Shown here piece after piece: positions 3 through 40,907 of a DNA stretch of 46,155 bases (positions are counted from its first letter, which is position 1; every line of letters begins with the position of its first letter). The stretch is taken from contig JBBTVP010000007.1 of the NCBI GenBank assembly GCA_038063175.1, positions 1 through 46,155 of the forward strand, given 5' to 3'. The translations under genes were made by a program, and so were the position numbers. The DNA is from Patescibacteria group bacterium (GTDB lineage Bacteria; Patescibacteriota; Minisyncoccia; UBA6257; 1-14-0-10-40-38). Under the pieces are notes generated by a model. That model was not told the DNA's origin, ran no database searches, and saw only the letters and a program-made list of their open reading frames with translations.

Positions 3-1007
3 AAACGTATTTCGAAACGGGAGTTCGCTCATGAGTATGGGGATATTATTTCGGTTGAGAATCTATTATTAGCATGGCAGGAGTTTGTTTGTGGTAAACG
101 GAAAAAGCATGATGTTCAGGAATTCTCTTTCCGTTTAATGGATAACATCCTAGCAATACATGAAGATTTAGCGCAACAGCGATATAAGCATGGAGGTTAT
201 TACGCGTTTAAGATTTCCGATCCTAAGCCGCGCCAAATTCATAAGGCTAGTGTGCGAGATCGTTTAGTGCACCATGCAATTTACCGAATTTTATACCCAC
301 GTTTCGATAAATTATTCATTGCCGATTCCTACTCATGCCGACTCGGAAAGGGGACGCATAAAGCGTTACGAAGATTCAAATATTTTTCGAATATCGCAAG
401 TAAAAATAACACTCGTACCGTGTGGGTTCTAAAATGTGATATCAAAAAGTTTTTCGCAAACATCGATCATGAAATTCTATTTTCTTTGCTGGAGAAACGG
501 ATTCAGGACAAGAATATTATTGATTTGCTGAAAAACATTGTTTCCAGCTTTTCCGTGAAGCCTAGCGTTGGTCTCCCGCTCGGGAATCTTACGAGTCAGC
601 TTCTCGTAAATATCTACATGAATGAGTTTGACCAGTTTGCAAAGCACACCTTGAAAGCAAGGCACTATCTTCGCTATGCAGATGACTTCGTGTTTCTTTC
701 TGATGATCGAAGCTGGATAGAAAGTTTAATCCCTCGGATCCAAGAATTTCTCACCATGCGCTTACGGCTTACATTGCATCCCGATAAACTTTTTATCAAA
801 ACCGTTGCTTCCGGAGTGGATTTCCTAGGTTGGGTGCATTTCCCGGATCACCGCGTCCTTCGAACGGCCACTAAAAGGCGGATGTTTCGCGGTCTCCGGA
901 AGACTAAAGGTAAAAACGCAACGATACAGTCATATCTCGGCCTTATGAGCCATGGGAATACTAAAAAGCTGCAAAGTGAAATTGAGAAACTCCAAATGGA
1001 ATCGTAG
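3..1007 (+). CDS. Reverse transcriptase, diversity-generating retroelement (DGR) type; 5' end runs off the window
   Basis: Frame 3 is open from nt 3 (KRISKREFAHEYGDIISVENLLLAWQEF...), so the ORF-track Met at 138 is internal. RT motifs: SYSCRLGKGTHKA, LPLGNLTSQLLVNIY (the [ILV]GxxxSQ signature of DGR RTs, versus QGxxxSP in group II introns) and YADDFVF. Length and order are co-linear with Bordetella phage Brt as I recall it. Confidence 0.8.
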   Translation, partial: KRISKREFAHEYGDIISVENLLLAWQEFVCGKRKKHDVQEFSFRLMDNILAIHEDLAQQRYKHGGYYAFKISDPKPRQIHKASVRDRLVHHAIYRILYPRFDKLFIADSYSCRLGKGTHKALRRFKYFSNIASKNNTRTVWVLKCDIKKFFANIDHEILFSLLEKRIQDKNIIDLLKNIVSSFSVKPSVGLPLGNLTSQLLVNIYMNEFDQFAKHTLKARHYLRYADDFVFLSDDRSWIESLIPRIQEFLTMRLRLTLHPDKLFIKTVASGVDFLGWVHFPDHRVLRTATKRRMFRGLRKTKGKNATIQSYLGLMSHGNTKKLQSEIEKLQMES

Positions 1008-1012
1008 AAATA

Positions 1013-2098
1013 TTATTTGTCCTTCACTAATTTCACGAAATCTTCTTCTCGTTCGTATCCATGTAGTCGTCCTTCGAGCATTCCTAATCGGTAACTTACC
1101 CCGTCCGTCATAAGTCTCCAGTTCGTTTCTTTAAGGGTTTTTCTGAGGAGTTTTTCGAGTTCGTAGGTACTCGCACGATCTTCTCGATCAGGGCGCTGCT
1201 CATAAACTACGAAAGGGACCACTACGTCCTTCGTGATTTCCGGAGTCTTGAACTGCAATTTTATATACCCTTCCTTTTCAAGTACAGGTGCGAGCAGTTG
1301 CTCTAACTCAATAATTTTCAATTTCTTTAGCTTGGCGACCTTGTCATAGAGTTCTTTGTTCTTATCTTTTTCCTTTAGTTCATCCATCATCTTACTGACC
1401 TGCTCCAAGTTGTATTTTTGCTGTATGAATTCTTGACCCTCCTTTTCTGAAAGGCAGAATCGGGCGCGATCTTTTGCGTAGTCGGGATCGGGTTTGGATT
1501 CCTCATGGACTGTTCGTTTTATTTCACTCGTATCGGTGTAGTCGCATTTCGGGCAAGTGACGTTCGTAATGAATGCGGCATCCGTTACCGTATCTTCTTC
1601 GTTGACGGGAGTTTTGCACTTCGGGCAGCGTGGGGGATCATGTCTGAATTCTTCTCCGTTTTCATAGAACGCCCGGTGAGGGATGTGGCCCAGTGGGCAG
1701 TCATAGAAAAAGAGGATGGTATCCGGTTTCTTATCCCAGCCCATATTCAAATGCTTTGAGCTTACGAACGTGAGTCGCCCGCAGGTAAGGCAGGTAATGT
1801 TTTCCGGAGCCTTTGCCGCTTCAAAGAACTTGTCCCGCGCCTCGTCCTCCCGCATCCATTCCCGAATTGTTTCTTCTTTTTTGATATATCGCTCACCGGT
1901 ATAGAAATAGTTGTGGAGATGGTTTATGTAGGCGAGTGCCTGTTTCTCCTCTTTTTCGCTCAGTTTCTTCTCATTAGGATCTTTGGCGAGAGATTTCGTG
2001 TCTATGGAATGGGAAAGCCACCATCGACATTTCTCGACGGTGTAGCGGTCGTAGCGATCGATATACTCCTGTTTGGGACGCAAATACTTCTCATTCAT
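1013..2098 (-). CDS. Hypothetical protein with several CxxC zinc-ribbon motifs
   Basis: Clean 361-aa ORF. Cys pairs: CLTCGR, CPLGH, CPKCKTP, CPKCDY. The C-terminal half is coiled-coil-like and K/E-rich. Convergent with the RT, 5 nt apart. No family recognised. Confidence 0.6.
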   Translation of the reverse strand: MNEKYLRPKQEYIDRYDRYTVEKCRWWLSHSIDTKSLAKDPNEKKLSEKEEKQALAYINHLHNYFYTGERYIKKEETIREWMREDEARDKFFEAAKAPENITCLTCGRLTFVSSKHLNMGWDKKPDTILFFYDCPLGHIPHRAFYENGEEFRHDPPRCPKCKTPVNEEDTVTDAAFITNVTCPKCDYTDTSEIKRTVHEESKPDPDYAKDRARFCLSEKEGQEFIQQKYNLEQVSKMMDELKEKDKNKELYDKVAKLKKLKIIELEQLLAPVLEKEGYIKLQFKTPEITKDVVVPFVVYEQRPDREDRASTYELEKLLRKTLKETNWRLMTDGVSYRLGMLEGRLHGYEREEDFVKLVKDK

Positions 2099-2148
2099 AT
2101 AGCCATGTATTCTATAGCTTCTTTTCGGTTTATGACATAATAAATACT

Positions 2149-2286
2149 ATGGAAAGCGAAGAGAAAGTCAGTCCTCCCGATCTTAAGCAGACATTCTCCG
2201 TTGCGGAGTATATTGAGTTTTTAAACGTCTTTTTCAAGAAACAAGAAGCTCGTGTTATTGGCGAGGTTTCCACTTGTAGAATTTAG
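2149..2286 (+). pseudogene. xseA: N-terminal fragment of exodeoxyribonuclease VII large subunit, ended by an in-frame TAG (2284-2286)
   Basis: The ATG at 2149 is in the same frame as the 2299 ORF. It reads MESEEKVSPPDLKQTFSVAEYIEFLNVFFKKQEARVIGEVSTCRI*. With the downstream PSGHVYFTVKD this reproduces the XseA OB-fold motif GE[IV]S-x6-SGHxYFxLKD with no gap. Confidence 0.65.
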
Positions 2287-9260: not shown

Positions 9261-9373
9261 GTGGAGATTTTAAAACACAAAACTCCACGCTGACCCGACC
9301 CCTTGCGGGATCCACACCCTTTCGGATGTGACTCTAGGTGAATAGGCCAAACGTGGAGTTTGGTATCACCTAG
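9261..9373. other. Cluster of nested inverted repeats/hairpins (candidate ncRNA or recombinase site)
   Basis: gtggagatttt (9261-9271) / aaaactccac (9279-9288). gacccc-ttgc-gggatc (9297-9312). cacaccc-tttc-ggatgtg (9313-9330). ctaggtga (9334-9341) / tcacctag (9366-9373), enclosing ccaaac/gtttgg. Confidence 0.5.
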
Positions 9374-9510
9374 AGAATTTCTTGAGCCATGCCGCCCGAT
9401 TACTCGGAGGGTTTAGGCTACTACCGCTATTCAGTTGTTAATGACCATAATATCCCTAAACCCTCGCCCCTCCAAGACCCTATCGCAGATCATTAGTTCT
9501 GCTAAGCCGG

Positions 9511-30642: not shown

Positions 30643-31116
30643 TCAGATTCTTGGAGTTGAGATGATCGAGACTTGAAGCCGCTTCACGCCCCACGCGCGA
30701 GCTTCCTTGTGTGTGGGAAAGCGAAGATCGATGTGATATTCGCCATCGCTTGTGCTTTGCCGCATCGCGCCTCCAGTGTCGTCCACGATCCGTGTTCCAG
30801 CACCAGGGACTAGAAGGATTGTTCCGTAGGAGAGTACGGATGGATCTGTGGCAGCTCCGCCGGGATCAGATGCCTTTCGGCCAAGCTTTACCTCGCGATC
30901 CGGTCCAAGCTCTGCCCAACTACCACAGCAGTCGGTGCATGGGCAATAGGCAGTGATTGTCATCGGGATGATCTGCCGATTGGGCTCGGTGACCCCCTGT
31001 TCTTCTTGTGAGGTTGGCCAGTTGCCCGCAACCATCGCAATGATCTGCGACAGGAGCACTACCCCCGCAGTGAAATCGACGACGAGCACAAACGCTACGC
31101 GAAGCCATGAACGCAT
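30643..31116 (-). CDS. 3D-domain (MltA/RlpA-like double-psi beta-barrel) protein with N-terminal membrane anchor
   Basis: ITAYCPCTDCCG...AATDPSVLSYGTILLVPGAGTRIVDDTGGAM...HIDLRF matches the 3D (Asp-Asp-Asp) domain seen in cell-wall-active and phage proteins. Confidence 0.7.
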   Translation of the reverse strand: MRSWLRVAFVLVVDFTAGVVLLSQIIAMVAGNWPTSQEEQGVTEPNRQIIPMTITAYCPCTDCCGSWAELGPDREVKLGRKASDPGGAATDPSVLSYGTILLVPGAGTRIVDDTGGAMRQSTSDGEYHIDLRFPTHKEARAWGVKRLQVSIISTPRI

Positions 31117-31182
31117 AGAAGCTCCTTCTTCTCTGGTGGGTTTTCAGCGTACCGTGCAAAAGTATATGACAAACAATGGCTA

Positions 31183-31211
31183 TTGTCAAATCCTGCAAAT
31201 GGCGCTATAGT
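31183..31211 (+). promoter_or_regulatory. Sigma70-like promoter of rnpB
   Basis: TTGTCA (31183-31188), a 17-nt spacer, TATAGT (31206-31211). The predicted transcription start, near 31217-31218, coincides with the first base of the P1 5' strand. Confidence 0.6.
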
Positions 31212-31216
31212 TGCAT

Positions 31217-31860
31217 ACGGTAGTTCAGGCGCTACCCCCCTCCCTCAGACTATGTACTACGTGTATGTTCTGCAAAGTCTGAAAGATGGTAAGTTGTATA
31301 TCGGATACACCGCCGATCTTCGACAACGCTTTCAGGAACATCAGCAGGGACATTCTCGGGCAACCGCTTATCGCCGTCCATGGCATTTGTCGTACTACGA
31401 AGCCTATGACTCGGTTGATGACGCACGTGCGCGAGAAAGGCAACTGAAAAGATTTAAGTCAGCGTACGGTCAACTCAAAAAACGTCTCACCAAAAGCCTG
31501 AAGCTTAGATACATAGATTGAGGGAGGGGGGAGGAAAGTCCGGACACCCATCCGCCGATGAGGCGGAATAGGTAGCGGGTAACGCCCGCCAGCAGTAATG
31601 CAGAGGTGCGAACAGTGACGCCGCGTGGCGAAAGCTTTACGCGGGAGCCCTATCCCAAGCTTGATGGCTCAATTCCGCTATAGGGATGACAAAGCGGAGG
31701 TGCAACGGCTAAATCCTTACCTGGGTGCAAGGCCGTGTCCTCCGTAGCTTTATGCGAAGGAGGAAGTGCCGCTACAGGCGTAGAGCAATCTACGTCGCAG
31801 ATAAATTGCCGCCGCCCGCCGATGAGGCGGGAACAGAATCCGGCTTACGAACTACCGCAC
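31217..31860 (+). ncRNA. rnpB: RNase P RNA (bacterial type A) with a 273-nt insertion in the P3 loop
   Basis: GAGGAAAGTCCGGAC (31531-45), GGGTAACGCC (31577-86), GCAAGGCC, AGATAAAT and ACAGAATCCGGCTTAC (31833-48). P1: cggtagttc (31218-26) / gaactaccg (31849-57). P3: cccccctccctc (31235-46) / gagggagggggg (31520-31). Confidence 0.88.
31252..31521 (+). CDS. Small GIY-YIG (URI-domain) nuclease, encoded inside the rnpB P3 loop
   Basis: MYYVYVLQSLKDGKLYIGYTADLRQRFQEHQQG...YYEAY...ARERQLK has the GIY...YIG...R...E motifs of the roughly 90-aa stand-alone GIY-YIG family. The ORF-track start at 31183 is a TTG inside the promoter -35 box. Confidence 0.8.
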   Translation: MYYVYVLQSLKDGKLYIGYTADLRQRFQEHQQGHSRATAYRRPWHLSYYEAYDSVDDARARERQLKRFKSAYGQLKKRLTKSLKLRYID

Positions 31861-31862
31861 AA

Positions 31863-31895
31863 CTGCCCCGACTTCGGTCGGGGCAGTTTGTATGT
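31863..31895 (+). terminator. Intrinsic terminator of rnpB (also abuts the rnhA 3' end)
   Basis: ctgccccgac (31863-72), ttcg loop, gtcggggcag (31877-86), then tttgtatgttgt. Confidence 0.85.
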
Positions 31896-31899
31896 TGTA

Positions 31900-32355
31900 T
31901 CAGAGAAGACGTGGTGCGTCTTCGGAGGGGATGGGCGATCCATCGAGTGCCTGGTTCACCATTTTATCTGCCTCCTTATTTTCTTCCCGGGGGATTTTTT
32001 TAAACGTTACGGATTTAAAATCCTGAATAAGATTCCACGCCTCTATAAAAAGAGTTTGAAGTTCTGGTTCGAGGATTTTATATTGTCCGCCGATCTGTTT
32101 GTATATAAGTTCTGAATCAAGACGAAGTTCGACGTCGGTTTTTTTAGCTTCAGTTTTTCCTAAAAGCTGCTTCGCCTTTTTCAGTGCCGCAATGACCGCT
32201 TTGTATTCGGCAACATTGTTTGTAGTGTTGCCAATCACTTCACCATAACGACGACCCCCGACAATATAGCCGATTGCGGCAGGACCCGGGTTTCCCCTTG
32301 CGCCGCCATCGGTTGAAATAAGGAGCTTTGCGTCAGTAAAAAGTTTTTCGTCCAT
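31900..32355 (-). CDS. rnhA: Ribonuclease HI
   Basis: STDGGARGNPGPAAIGY, NNVAEYKAVIAAL, LDSELIYKQ and EENKEADKMVNQA carry the DEDD catalytic residues of type 1 RNase H. Confidence 0.85.
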   Translation of the reverse strand: MDEKLFTDAKLLISTDGGARGNPGPAAIGYIVGGRRYGEVIGNTTNNVAEYKAVIAALKKAKQLLGKTEAKKTDVELRLDSELIYKQIGGQYKILEPELQTLFIEAWNLIQDFKSVTFKKIPREENKEADKMVNQALDGSPIPSEDAPRLL

Positions 32356-40872: not shown

Positions 40873-40907
40873 CAACCCCCTCCTTTCGTTATGAAAGGAG
40901 GGGGTTG
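40873..40907 (-). terminator. Terminator of the RRM protein gene
   Basis: Perfect 14-bp stem caaccccctccttt (40873-86) / aaaggagggggttg (40894-907), starting 8 nt after the stop. Confidence 0.75.

Follow-up and report, generated by a model that had tools for sequence, protein, structure and literature searches.

How can a protein-coding gene come to lie inside the gene for RNase P RNA, an essential ribozyme, and does the interrupted gene still have the architecture of a bacterial rnpB? This question is raised by a locus in a groundwater Patescibacteria (CPR) genome, examined here in the context of a 46,155-nt stretch of DNA (contig JBBTVP010000007.1, hereafter the window). An earlier note described an RNase P RNA gene in the window whose P3 hairpin loop is filled by an ORF for a GIY-YIG nuclease, and every sequence feature that it listed was recovered. 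The features of the locus are collected in Table 1.

An RNase P RNA gene interrupted between P2 and P4

The gene contains the rnpB elements GAGGAAAGTCCGGAC, GGGTAACGCC and ACAGAATCCGGCTTAC, and the conserved P4 strands (GAGGAAAGUCCGG ... ACAGAAnnCGGCUUA) occur in the correct order. The P1 helix, formed by cggtagttc and gaactaccg, is perfect over 9 bp and was matched by 0 of 2000 shuffled sequences. The proposed P2 helix is too short to be significant by shuffling (7-147 of 500 shuffles), and is accepted only on the basis of its position and its identity to relatives. The minimum free energy fold of the gene recovers P1 and the stem that closes the ORF (z = -6.6).

A search of the whole window with Rfam at gathering thresholds reported only LOOT and one tRNA. 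In a relaxed search, the RNaseP_bact_a model (RF00010) matches 31519-31863 with 75.8 bits (gathering threshold 100; E=4.9e-23), with P1-P3 forced wrongly into the 3′ end of the ORF. This failure is expected if the true 5′ strands of P1 and P2 lie 300 nt upstream, and the shortfall in score is explained by the 270-nt interruption between P2 and P4. An independent assembly from the same site is identical across 31149-32196, which covers both junctions of the insert.

Table 1. Features of the interrupted rnpB locus, in coordinates of the window
Position	Strand	Feature	Support
31183..31211	+	sigma-70-type promoter of rnpB (TTGTCA-17-TATAGT); predicted start at about 31218, the first base of P1	10 of 12 matches; the -35 hexamer TTGTCA is invariant in the window and four syntenic relatives
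31218..31857	+	RNase P RNA gene (class A type), 640 nt including the cassette; about 343-367 nt without it	partial RF00010 match; P1; orthology to insert-free rnpB of relatives
31218..31226 / 31849..31857		P1	shuffling test
31228..31234	+	P2 5′ strand GGCGCUA, proposed to pair with 31807-31813 (UGCCGCC) with one C-C mismatch	read from the sequence; 5′ strand identical in relative L163
31235..31531		hairpin cassette, 297 nt	inverted repeat and ORF
31235..31256	+	left arm of the cassette (perfect core CCCCCCTCCCTCA, 31235-47); acts as the P3 5′ strand; inner part covers the AUG	inverted repeat with 22-nt arms, 91% complementary
31252..31521	+	intact ORF of 89 aa; minimal GIY-YIG nuclease of the Slx1/UPF0213 type; TGA (31519-21) lies in the right arm	PF01541, E=4.9e-17
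31510..31531	+	right arm of the cassette (perfect core TGAGGGAGGGGGG, 31519-31); acts as the P3 3′ strand; last G is the first G of the P4 strand	inverted repeat, as for the left arm
31531..31545	+	P4 5′ strand GAGGAAAGUCCGGAC (universal core)	sequence; RF00010 match
31552..31566	+	native hairpin CCGCC-GAUGA-GGCGG between P5 and P7 (P5.1-like position)	present in insert-free relatives
31577..31586		rnpB element GGGTAACGCC	sequence
31815..31831	+	native hairpin CCCGCC-GAUGA-GGCGGG between the P2 3′ and P4 3′ strands (P19-like position)	RF00010 match; alignment with relatives
31833..31848	+	P4 3′ strand ACAGAAUCCGGCUUAC	sequence; RF00010 match
31861..31888	+	intrinsic terminator (12-bp stem, UUCG loop, U-rich tail)	terminator prediction
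40873..40907	.	ORF-less 15-bp perfect hairpin CAACCCCCTCCTTTC/GAAAGGAGGGGGTTG with arms resembling the cassette arms; possible solo or miniature relative (uncertain)	inverted-repeat and hairpin searches

The hairpin cassette and its nuclease

Immediately before the P4 5′ strand, where P3 would be expected, the gene contains a hairpin whose arms enclose the ORF. The perfect stem is 13 bp rather than the 12 bp given in the earlier note, and the inverted repeat continues to 22 nt with 2 mismatches, such that the AUG pairs with CAU at 31512-14. This is the first-listed inverted repeat reported for the whole 46 kb. The only promoter-like site ahead of the ORF is the rnpB promoter. The absence of a Shine-Dalgarno sequence before the ORF is uninformative, because only 3 of 29 long ORFs in the window have one. 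No second copy of the ORF was found in the window.

The encoded protein, which includes the peptide MYYVYVLQSLKDGK..., matches the GIY-YIG profile PF01541 with 62.4 bits against a cut-off of 22.6, and is related by sequence to the proteins of PDB entries 1ZG2 and 1YWL. Among 50 homologs, Y5, Y16, G18, R26, H30 and E50 are invariant and E62 is at least 90% conserved. An AF2 model (pLDDT 91.8) gave Foldseek hits to UPF0213 and Slx1, whereas I-TevI is only a weak structural match (E=0.3). The GIY-YIG domain covers residues 1-69, leaving a 20-residue basic helix and no DNA-binding domain. The nuclease belongs to the Slx1/UPF0213 minimal branch rather than to the I-TevI homing branch, so classical sequence-specific homing is doubtful. 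Synonymous sites are saturated while dN is 0.29-0.50, and so no dN/dS ratio could be calculated.

No intron family was reported at E up to 10 within 31100-31950, and only about 27 nt of the 297-nt cassette lie outside the ORF. The insert is not a group I or group II intron, as the earlier note had concluded.

Empty sites and recurrence of the cassette

Four syntenic relatives (L163/L164, L165, L167 and L169; loci are designated here by L numbers), whose neighboring RNase HI is 77-90% identical, retain the gene order DHHA1, RNase HI, rnpB, 3D-domain protein. Their rnpB genes score 83.6-105.8 bits with RF00010 and can be aligned with that of the window along the whole gene except P3, where they contain only an 18-24 nt hairpin between matching flanks. 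In L163, the upstream flank GGUAGUUCAGGCGCUA and, immediately after P3, the downstream flank AGGAAAGUCCGGACAC are shared with the window. These loci are empty sites, and the insert is therefore a recent rather than an ancient acquisition.

The same layout recurs in five other CPR rnpB genes (L002, L036, L085, L086 and L087), in which the ORF directly precedes GAGGAAAGTCCG and is enclosed by 16-19 bp arms that differ in sequence but remain complementary. P1 upstream of the ORF pairs with the 3′ end in all five complete genes, with 0/2000, 0/2000, 0/2000, 52/2000 and 1/2000 shuffles reaching the observed score. A sixth rnpB gene, L122, carries the cassette at the hairpin after P5 instead. Six of seven rnpB copies of the ORF are intact; the L036 copy carries a frameshift, and the L002 ORF reads on through P4. 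A search for decayed GIY-YIG remnants in the other large expansions of these six rnpB genes found nothing significant.

Relatives of the ORF, enclosed by similar C-rich/G-rich arms, are also present in other stable-RNA genes and operons of CPR bacteria. Fourteen loci lie inside 16S (for example L089, L094, L096 and L102) or 23S (L029, L114 and L160) rRNA genes, 49 of 161 lie within 200 nt of a same-strand tRNA, and 3 lie beside tmRNA. Closing stems scoring 12 or more (roughly 12 bp) were found at 62 of 148 loci, against 5 of 148 decoys, and the arms share a common core, CCC(C)nCAC(A)CC..TTTT, across loci. Genomic context follows the GIY-YIG tree. Notably, L036 in rnpB and L089 in 16S have identical arms, CCCCCATCTAATTTTGT / ACAAAATTAGGTGGGGG, with unrelated flanks, and L085 and L083 share arms that differ only in the outermost base pair, in different contexts. 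A scan for perfect ORF-less mini-hairpins recovered only about ten with family-like arms, and so the idea of miniature derivatives is weakly supported.

The arms travel with the ORF. Contrary to the picture of an ORF in the loop of the native P3, which the earlier note had favored, the cassette probably replaces all of the native P3 hairpin, or all but its outer few pairs. However, the outer 6 bp of the stem could be native P3, since L163 has CGCUCC/GGGGUG where the window has CCCCCC/GGGGGG, and replacement cannot be fully separated from insertion into the loop in the window itself. The element resembles transposons and MITEs in its terminal inverted repeats, but no target-site duplication was found at the rnpB or 16S junctions, and the only ORF is the GIY-YIG domain rather than a recognized transposase. 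No defined cleavage site was found.

Relationship to known elements

The element belongs to the non-intron, GIY-YIG-encoding insertions that have already been reported in 16S and 23S rRNA genes of CPR bacteria (Brown et al., 2015, as cited in, and Tsurumaki et al., 2024; PMC11270868). In that survey every GIY-YIG ORF lies in a non-intron insertion, and CPR rRNA insertions in general are reported as removed from transcripts. The protein family, the host clade, the lack of group I or II intron features and the location at the tip or base of a peripheral stem-loop are shared. Here, however, the host gene is the RNase P ribozyme, and whereas that study doubted homing, empty sites and identity of arms across host genes are observed.

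A resemblance to the ORF-bearing intervening sequences of rRNA is also supported, as the earlier note had proposed. In those of bacterial 23S rRNA (Salmonella, Leptospira, Coxiella and others), a peripheral hairpin of an essential structural RNA is replaced by a longer stem-loop that can carry a small ORF (23S_rRNA_IVP) and is excised by RNase III without religation, the distribution among relatives is sporadic, and the host RNA stays functional. The cassette differs in its host RNA and in encoding a GIY-YIG nuclease rather than the four-helix IVP, and its cleavage by RNase III is only inferred.

Like the free-standing GIY-YIG homing endonucleases of T4-like phages (SegA-G), of which SegB lies in the tRNA gene cluster (PMC2330249), the nuclease gene is not housed in an intron and is lodged beside or within conserved stable-RNA genes, and its presence/absence polymorphism between relatives is consistent with gene conversion. 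Seg and I-TevI proteins, however, are probably larger (about 200-250 aa) and carry DNA-binding domains. The protein has the same minimal domain architecture and (predicted) fold as the stand-alone prokaryotic Slx1-like/UPF0213 (YhbQ-type) proteins of unknown function (Dunin-Horkawicz et al., 2006; PMC1564403), among which the CPR family is embedded. Finally, rnpB genes that fall below Rfam thresholds and carry large helix extensions needing manual refolding have been described in CPR bacteria (Lui et al., 2021; PMC8172020), but that work reports only non-coding extensions and missing helices, and mentions no ORF and no GIY-YIG.

Interpretation

The explanation that best accounts for these observations, and that appears likely, is that a small mobile cassette, consisting of conserved inverted-repeat arms and an 85-90 aa stand-alone GIY-YIG nuclease, occupies the P3 position of a functional, syntenically conserved RNase P RNA gene. 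This agrees with the suggestion in the earlier note that the locus records invasion by a small selfish GIY-YIG element. How the cassette operates can only be inferred. The ORF would be transcribed as part of the RNase P RNA precursor, and the 13-22 bp closing stem would bring the P2 and P4 strands together, so that the ribozyme core folds as if P3 were a simple hairpin, while the same stem sequesters the AUG. The long duplex is then probably cut by an RNase III-type enzyme, as in rRNA intervening sequences, releasing the ORF RNA and leaving a two-piece RNase P RNA held together by P1, P2 and the stem stub, although a 13-bp perfect core is short for a classical RNase III site and the 22-nt version has two mismatches. 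Alternatively, the insert could stay in place as a giant P3 loop. At the DNA level, the nuclease is inferred to promote spread of the cassette into hairpin positions of stable-RNA genes. Because the protein has no DNA-binding domain and resembles Slx1, recognition of a hairpin or cruciform structure, formed by its own arms or by the target hairpin, is more likely than I-TevI-like recognition of a sequence, but an 89-aa catalytic domain without a DNA-binding module is not known to mobilize anything.

It is conceivable, though unlikely, that the cassette is not selfish but serves a host function, with the nuclease processing or repairing tRNA, rRNA or RNase P precursors, or excising its own insert at the RNA level, and being embedded in stable-RNA transcription units for co-expression with its substrates. 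The striking association of the family with tRNA arrays, tmRNA, rRNA and rnpB and the intact, conserved ORFs are consistent with such a role, as is the observation that prokaryotic Slx1-like domains are fused to, or neighbor, the methyltransferases TrmH and COG4123, from which a role in RNA metabolism was suggested (PMC1564403). However, close relatives lack the cassette at the same locus, it moves between unrelated host genes with its arms, some genomes carry several copies (L052/L063 and L013/L077 come from the same assemblies), and one rnpB copy is frameshifted.

Slightly less probable still is that the insert is a passive relic of an ancient insertion, with an ORF that is no longer expressed or active, tolerated as an oversized P3 in the mature RNA. 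Peripheral helices of CPR RNase P RNAs, including P3, are often greatly expanded without any ORF (P3 of L122, and L002, L036, L086 and L087), as was also reported by Lui et al. (PMC8172020), the AUG is buried in the stem, and L036 is frameshifted. Against this, the ORF in the window is intact with all catalytic residues and is identical in two assemblies, the acquisition is recent, and most rnpB copies are intact although synonymous sites are saturated.

That the ORF is an ordinary upstream gene followed by the true start of rnpB, as the placement of P1-P3 by the Rfam model might suggest, or that the arrangement is an assembly chimera, is refuted by the alignment with the empty sites. This part of the Rfam alignment consists of mismatches and deletions, the P1/P2 5′ strand at 31218-34 is identical to that of insert-free relatives and pairs with the 3′ end, the conserved promoter lies upstream of P1, an independent assembly spans both junctions, and six other genomes show the same design.

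More tentatively, the locus may expose a type of mobile element that, as far as the searches made here show, has not been recognized as such: a self-contained hairpin cassette that specializes in swapping itself for peripheral hairpins of stable-RNA genes and that probably recognizes nucleic-acid structure rather than sequence. In rnpB, it would make an essential ribozyme precursor the only mRNA for the nuclease and would yield a naturally two-piece bacterial RNase P RNA.

RNase P RNA is one of the few universal ribozymes, and in the literature that could be searched, which returned only mitochondrial genomes and unrelated papers, no report was found of a protein-coding gene inside a bacterial rnpB. 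The insertion explains why rnpB goes undetected in some CPR genomes, since the model score drops below threshold, and it offers a natural test of whether RNase P RNA can work in two pieces or with a 270-nt loop. It also links the puzzling GIY-YIG inserts of CPR rRNA genes to a family with conserved arms that populates tRNA operons and tmRNA loci. An 89-aa nuclease that moves with its own hairpin would be one of the smallest autonomous mobile units, and would suggest how Slx1-like stand-alone GIY-YIG proteins, whose function is unknown, are used in bacteria.

Structure of the interrupted rnpB gene

The features listed in the earlier note, which described an RNase P RNA gene with a complete GIY-YIG nuclease ORF filling its P3 hairpin loop, are all present in this 46,155-bp contig of a Patescibacteria (CPR) genome bin from Hainich groundwater (table). 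The stem that closes around the ORF, however, is somewhat longer than the 12 bp given in the note, and in its extended form it includes the AUG. This stem is the top-ranked (first-listed) inverted repeat in the contig. In addition, thermodynamic folding of 31218-31857 recovers both P1 and the ORF-closing stem (z = -6.6), and a separate assembly from the same site is identical from 31149 to 32196, a stretch that covers both junctions, so that a chimera is unlikely.

Rfam searches behave as expected for an interrupted gene. No rnpB is reported at the gathering threshold, whereas in a relaxed search RNaseP_bact_a aligns to 31519-31863 at 75.8 bits, with P1-P3 pushed wrongly into the end of the ORF, as would be expected if the true 5′ strands lie 300 nt away. 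In the contig as a whole, only 3 of 29 long ORFs are preceded by a Shine-Dalgarno-like motif, against a background of 13%, and the organism seems largely SD-independent.

Features of the contig and of rnpB loci from other genomes, with their coordinates
Sequence	Feature	Coordinates	Strand	Remarks
Window	LOOT RNA (Rfam RF03000)	9297-9419	-	Full-length match, 73.5 bits against a gathering score of 46.4
Window	3D-domain gene	30643-31116		
Window	Near-consensus promoter, TTGACA-17-TATACT	31161-31189	-	Divergent from and overlapping the rnpB promoter; presumably serves the 3D-domain gene
Window	rnpB promoter, TTGTCA-17-TATAGT			Ends 7 nt before P1
Window	P1	31218-26 / 31849-57		9 bp, perfect; matched by no shuffle out of 2000
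Window	ORF-closing stem, perfect part	31235-47 / 31519-31		13 bp
Window	ORF-closing stem, extended	31235-56 / 31510-31		22 nt with two mismatches
Window	GIY-YIG ORF	31252-31521		PF01541, E=4.9e-17
Window	P4 strands	31531-45 and 31833-48		
Window	GAUGA-loop hairpins	31552-66 and 31815-31		The same 15-nt hairpin, CCGCC-GAUGA-GGCGG, at 31552-31566 (P5.1-like position) and 31816-31830 (P19-like position)
Window	GGGUAACGCC motif	31577-86		
Window	Terminator	31861-88		UUCG loop
Window	RNase HI gene	31900-32355	-	
Window	Intergenic hairpin, CAACCCCCTCCTTTC/GAAAGGAGGGGGTTG	40873-40907		15 bp, perfect; arms resemble the cassette arms
L036	rnpB-borne ORF	1482-1746		1-nt frameshift near 1503-1526
L002	rnpB-borne ORF	1501-1809		No stop in the right arm; reads through the P4 strand to 1809 (102 aa)
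L002	Large non-coding expansion of rnpB	1830-2100		
L087	Large non-coding expansion of rnpB	1090-1380		
L036	Large non-coding expansions of rnpB	1866-1975 and 2172-2262		
L086	Large non-coding expansion of rnpB	1060-1230		
L122	Large non-coding expansion of rnpB	107-233		
L007, L015, L084 (tRNA-Ala), L017 (tRNA-Lys)	Cassette directly upstream of a tRNA	around locus position 1460-1800		

Insert-free rnpB alleles in close relatives

The RNase HI gene that neighbors rnpB has homologs of 77-90% identity, and the contigs that carry them keep the gene order DHHA1 protein, RNase HI, rnpB (convergent) and 3D-domain protein. The rnpB genes of all four relatives (five contigs, of which those designated L163 and L164 carry the same allele) are insert-free, are about 370-405 nt long and score 83.6-105.8 bits. 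In a multiple alignment, the promoter, P1 and P2 (GGUAGUUCAGGCGCUA) and the P4 strand (AGGAAAGUCCGGACAC) line up with the window, but between them the relatives have only an 18-24 nt hairpin, for example CGCUCCGCA-GCAA-UGCGGGGUG in L163, whereas the window has about 275 extra nucleotides at exactly that spot. This comparison of insert-free and insert-bearing alleles, which the earlier note had called for, shows that the cassette was gained recently in the window lineage. It also shows that the two GAUGA-loop hairpins are native to the clade. Hairpins with this loop at the same two positions, and as P3 in the relative L165, are shared by insert-free relatives and may be a protein-binding or tertiary-contact motif.

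Recurrence of the cassette in other rnpB genes

A scan of species-representative genomes and metagenome contigs with the protein revealed the same design in five further, different rnpB genes, at the loci L002 (Kazan), L036, L085, L086 and L087. In each, the ORF is enclosed by a 16-19 bp stem whose last G is the first G of GAGGAAAGUCCG. The arms differ in sequence but stay complementary, as exemplified by CCCCCCACCACTTTTATA, CCCCCTCCCTACTTTTTTT and CCCCCATCTAATTTTG, the last of which has one G-U pair, and in every complete gene P1 and P2 5′ strands upstream of the ORF pair with the 3′ end. Rfam confirms RNase P RNA in L036 (142 bits), L002 (111.8), L085 (61.6) and L087 (54.9). In a further rnpB gene, L122 (105.1 bits), the cassette sits instead at the hairpin between P5 and P7, and an ORF-less hairpin with similar arms is found at the P19 position.

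The ORFs are intact and keep the catalytic Tyr, Arg, His and Glu residues, with the exceptions that L036 carries a frameshift, reflecting either decay or an assembly error, and that the L002 frame runs on through P4. Synonymous sites are saturated, while dN is 0.29-0.50. CPR rnpB genes also carry further large non-coding expansions at P12, P19, J5/7 and P3, some of which, in L036 and L122, are closed by arms resembling those of the cassette (CCCCCATCTTTT.., CCCCCCACACCTTTT..). No trace of a decayed GIY-YIG ORF was found in these expansions. The intergenic hairpin of the window may be an ORF-less relative, and similar ORF-less hairpins lie near ORF copies at the loci L004, L006, L017 and L122.

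Arms and ORF as a unit in stable-RNA genes

Among 161 loci encoding relatives of the ORF, closing stems scoring 12 or more (roughly 12 bp) occur in 62 of 148 testable loci, against 5 of 148 decoys, and the arms share a core, CCC(C)nCAC(A)CC..TTTT, paired with its complement. Fourteen loci lie inside 16S or 23S rRNA genes. The family is also strongly enriched next to same-strand tRNA genes, with 49 of 161 loci within 200 nt and often between two tRNAs, and three loci (L020, L021 and L134) lie just upstream of tmRNA. Genomic context follows the protein tree: there are tRNA-Cys, tRNA-Ser, tRNA-Ala and tmRNA clades, each protein subclade is tied to one particular tRNA, and one clade holds all the P3 copies. 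Interestingly, where the cassette lies directly upstream of a tRNA in L007, L015, L084 and L017, the first 7-11 nt of that tRNA (for example GGGCCCGTAGC) are repeated just upstream of the left arm, and the right arm overlaps the tRNA 5′ end by about 4 nt, which may be a footprint of the insertion mechanism.

The most telling comparison is between L036, at the P3 position of rnpB, and L089, in the V2 region of a 16S gene. Their arms are identical and their ORFs are about two-thirds identical at the DNA level, but their flanks are unrelated; homology begins and ends exactly at CCCCC...GGGGG, and there is no target-site duplication. A second case is provided by L083 and L095 (unknown context) and L085 (rnpB), in which near-identical arms (T/CCCCCCACCACTTTTATA) enclose GIY-YIG ORFs in unrelated flanks. 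Thus, arms and ORF move as one unit, and in rnpB the arms serve as P3.

The encoded protein is a minimal GIY-YIG domain. The nearest solved structures by sequence are the UPF0213 proteins 1ZG2 and 1YWL, and a confident AlphaFold model (pLDDT 91.8) matches UPF0213 and the Slx1 nuclease domain (E 3e-4 to 0.025) far better than I-TevI (E 0.3) or UvrC (E about 4).

Relation to known insertions and proposed mode of action

CPR rRNA genes are known to carry many insertions. Every GIY-YIG ORF among them is reported to lie in an insertion that is neither a group I nor a group II intron, and insertions usually sit at the top or base of stem-loops (Tsurumaki et al., 2024). CPR rRNA insertions, which often carry intron-like sequences and ORFs, are removed from transcripts (Brown et al., 2015, as cited in Tsurumaki et al., 2024). 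The window element is a member of that family, and it is the host gene that is new. Diverged, expanded CPR RNase P RNAs have been described, but with no ORF (Lui et al., 2021), and no paper describing a protein-coding insert in bacterial rnpB was found in literature searches that left out many subscription journals, which is absence of evidence rather than proof.

The interpretation offered in the earlier note, that a small GIY-YIG element may have invaded rnpB, is supported, with two corrections: the stem, taken in the note to be P3 with the ORF in its loop, probably belongs to the cassette rather than being native P3, and the nuclease is Slx1-like rather than I-TevI-like. Among less likely alternatives, a host role for the protein in RNA metabolism is supported only by the association with stable RNAs and by old domain-fusion hints, and the insert could also be an inert relic. 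That the ORF is an ordinary upstream gene, or the arrangement an assembly chimera, is refuted by the alignment with the empty sites.

The stem closes exactly around the ORF, and the only promoter-like site ahead of the ORF is the rnpB promoter. In the absence of RNA or protein data, the mode of action can only be inferred, but most likely the ORF is transcribed within the RNase P RNA precursor, and the stem insulates the ribozyme fold and hides the AUG, so that translation would be rare or limited to the nascent transcript. Probably, an RNase III-type cut in the duplex releases the ORF RNA and leaves a two-piece ribozyme, or else the loop is simply tolerated. At the DNA level, the nuclease is inferred to promote copying of the cassette into hairpin positions of stable-RNA genes, probably by recognizing structure rather than sequence.
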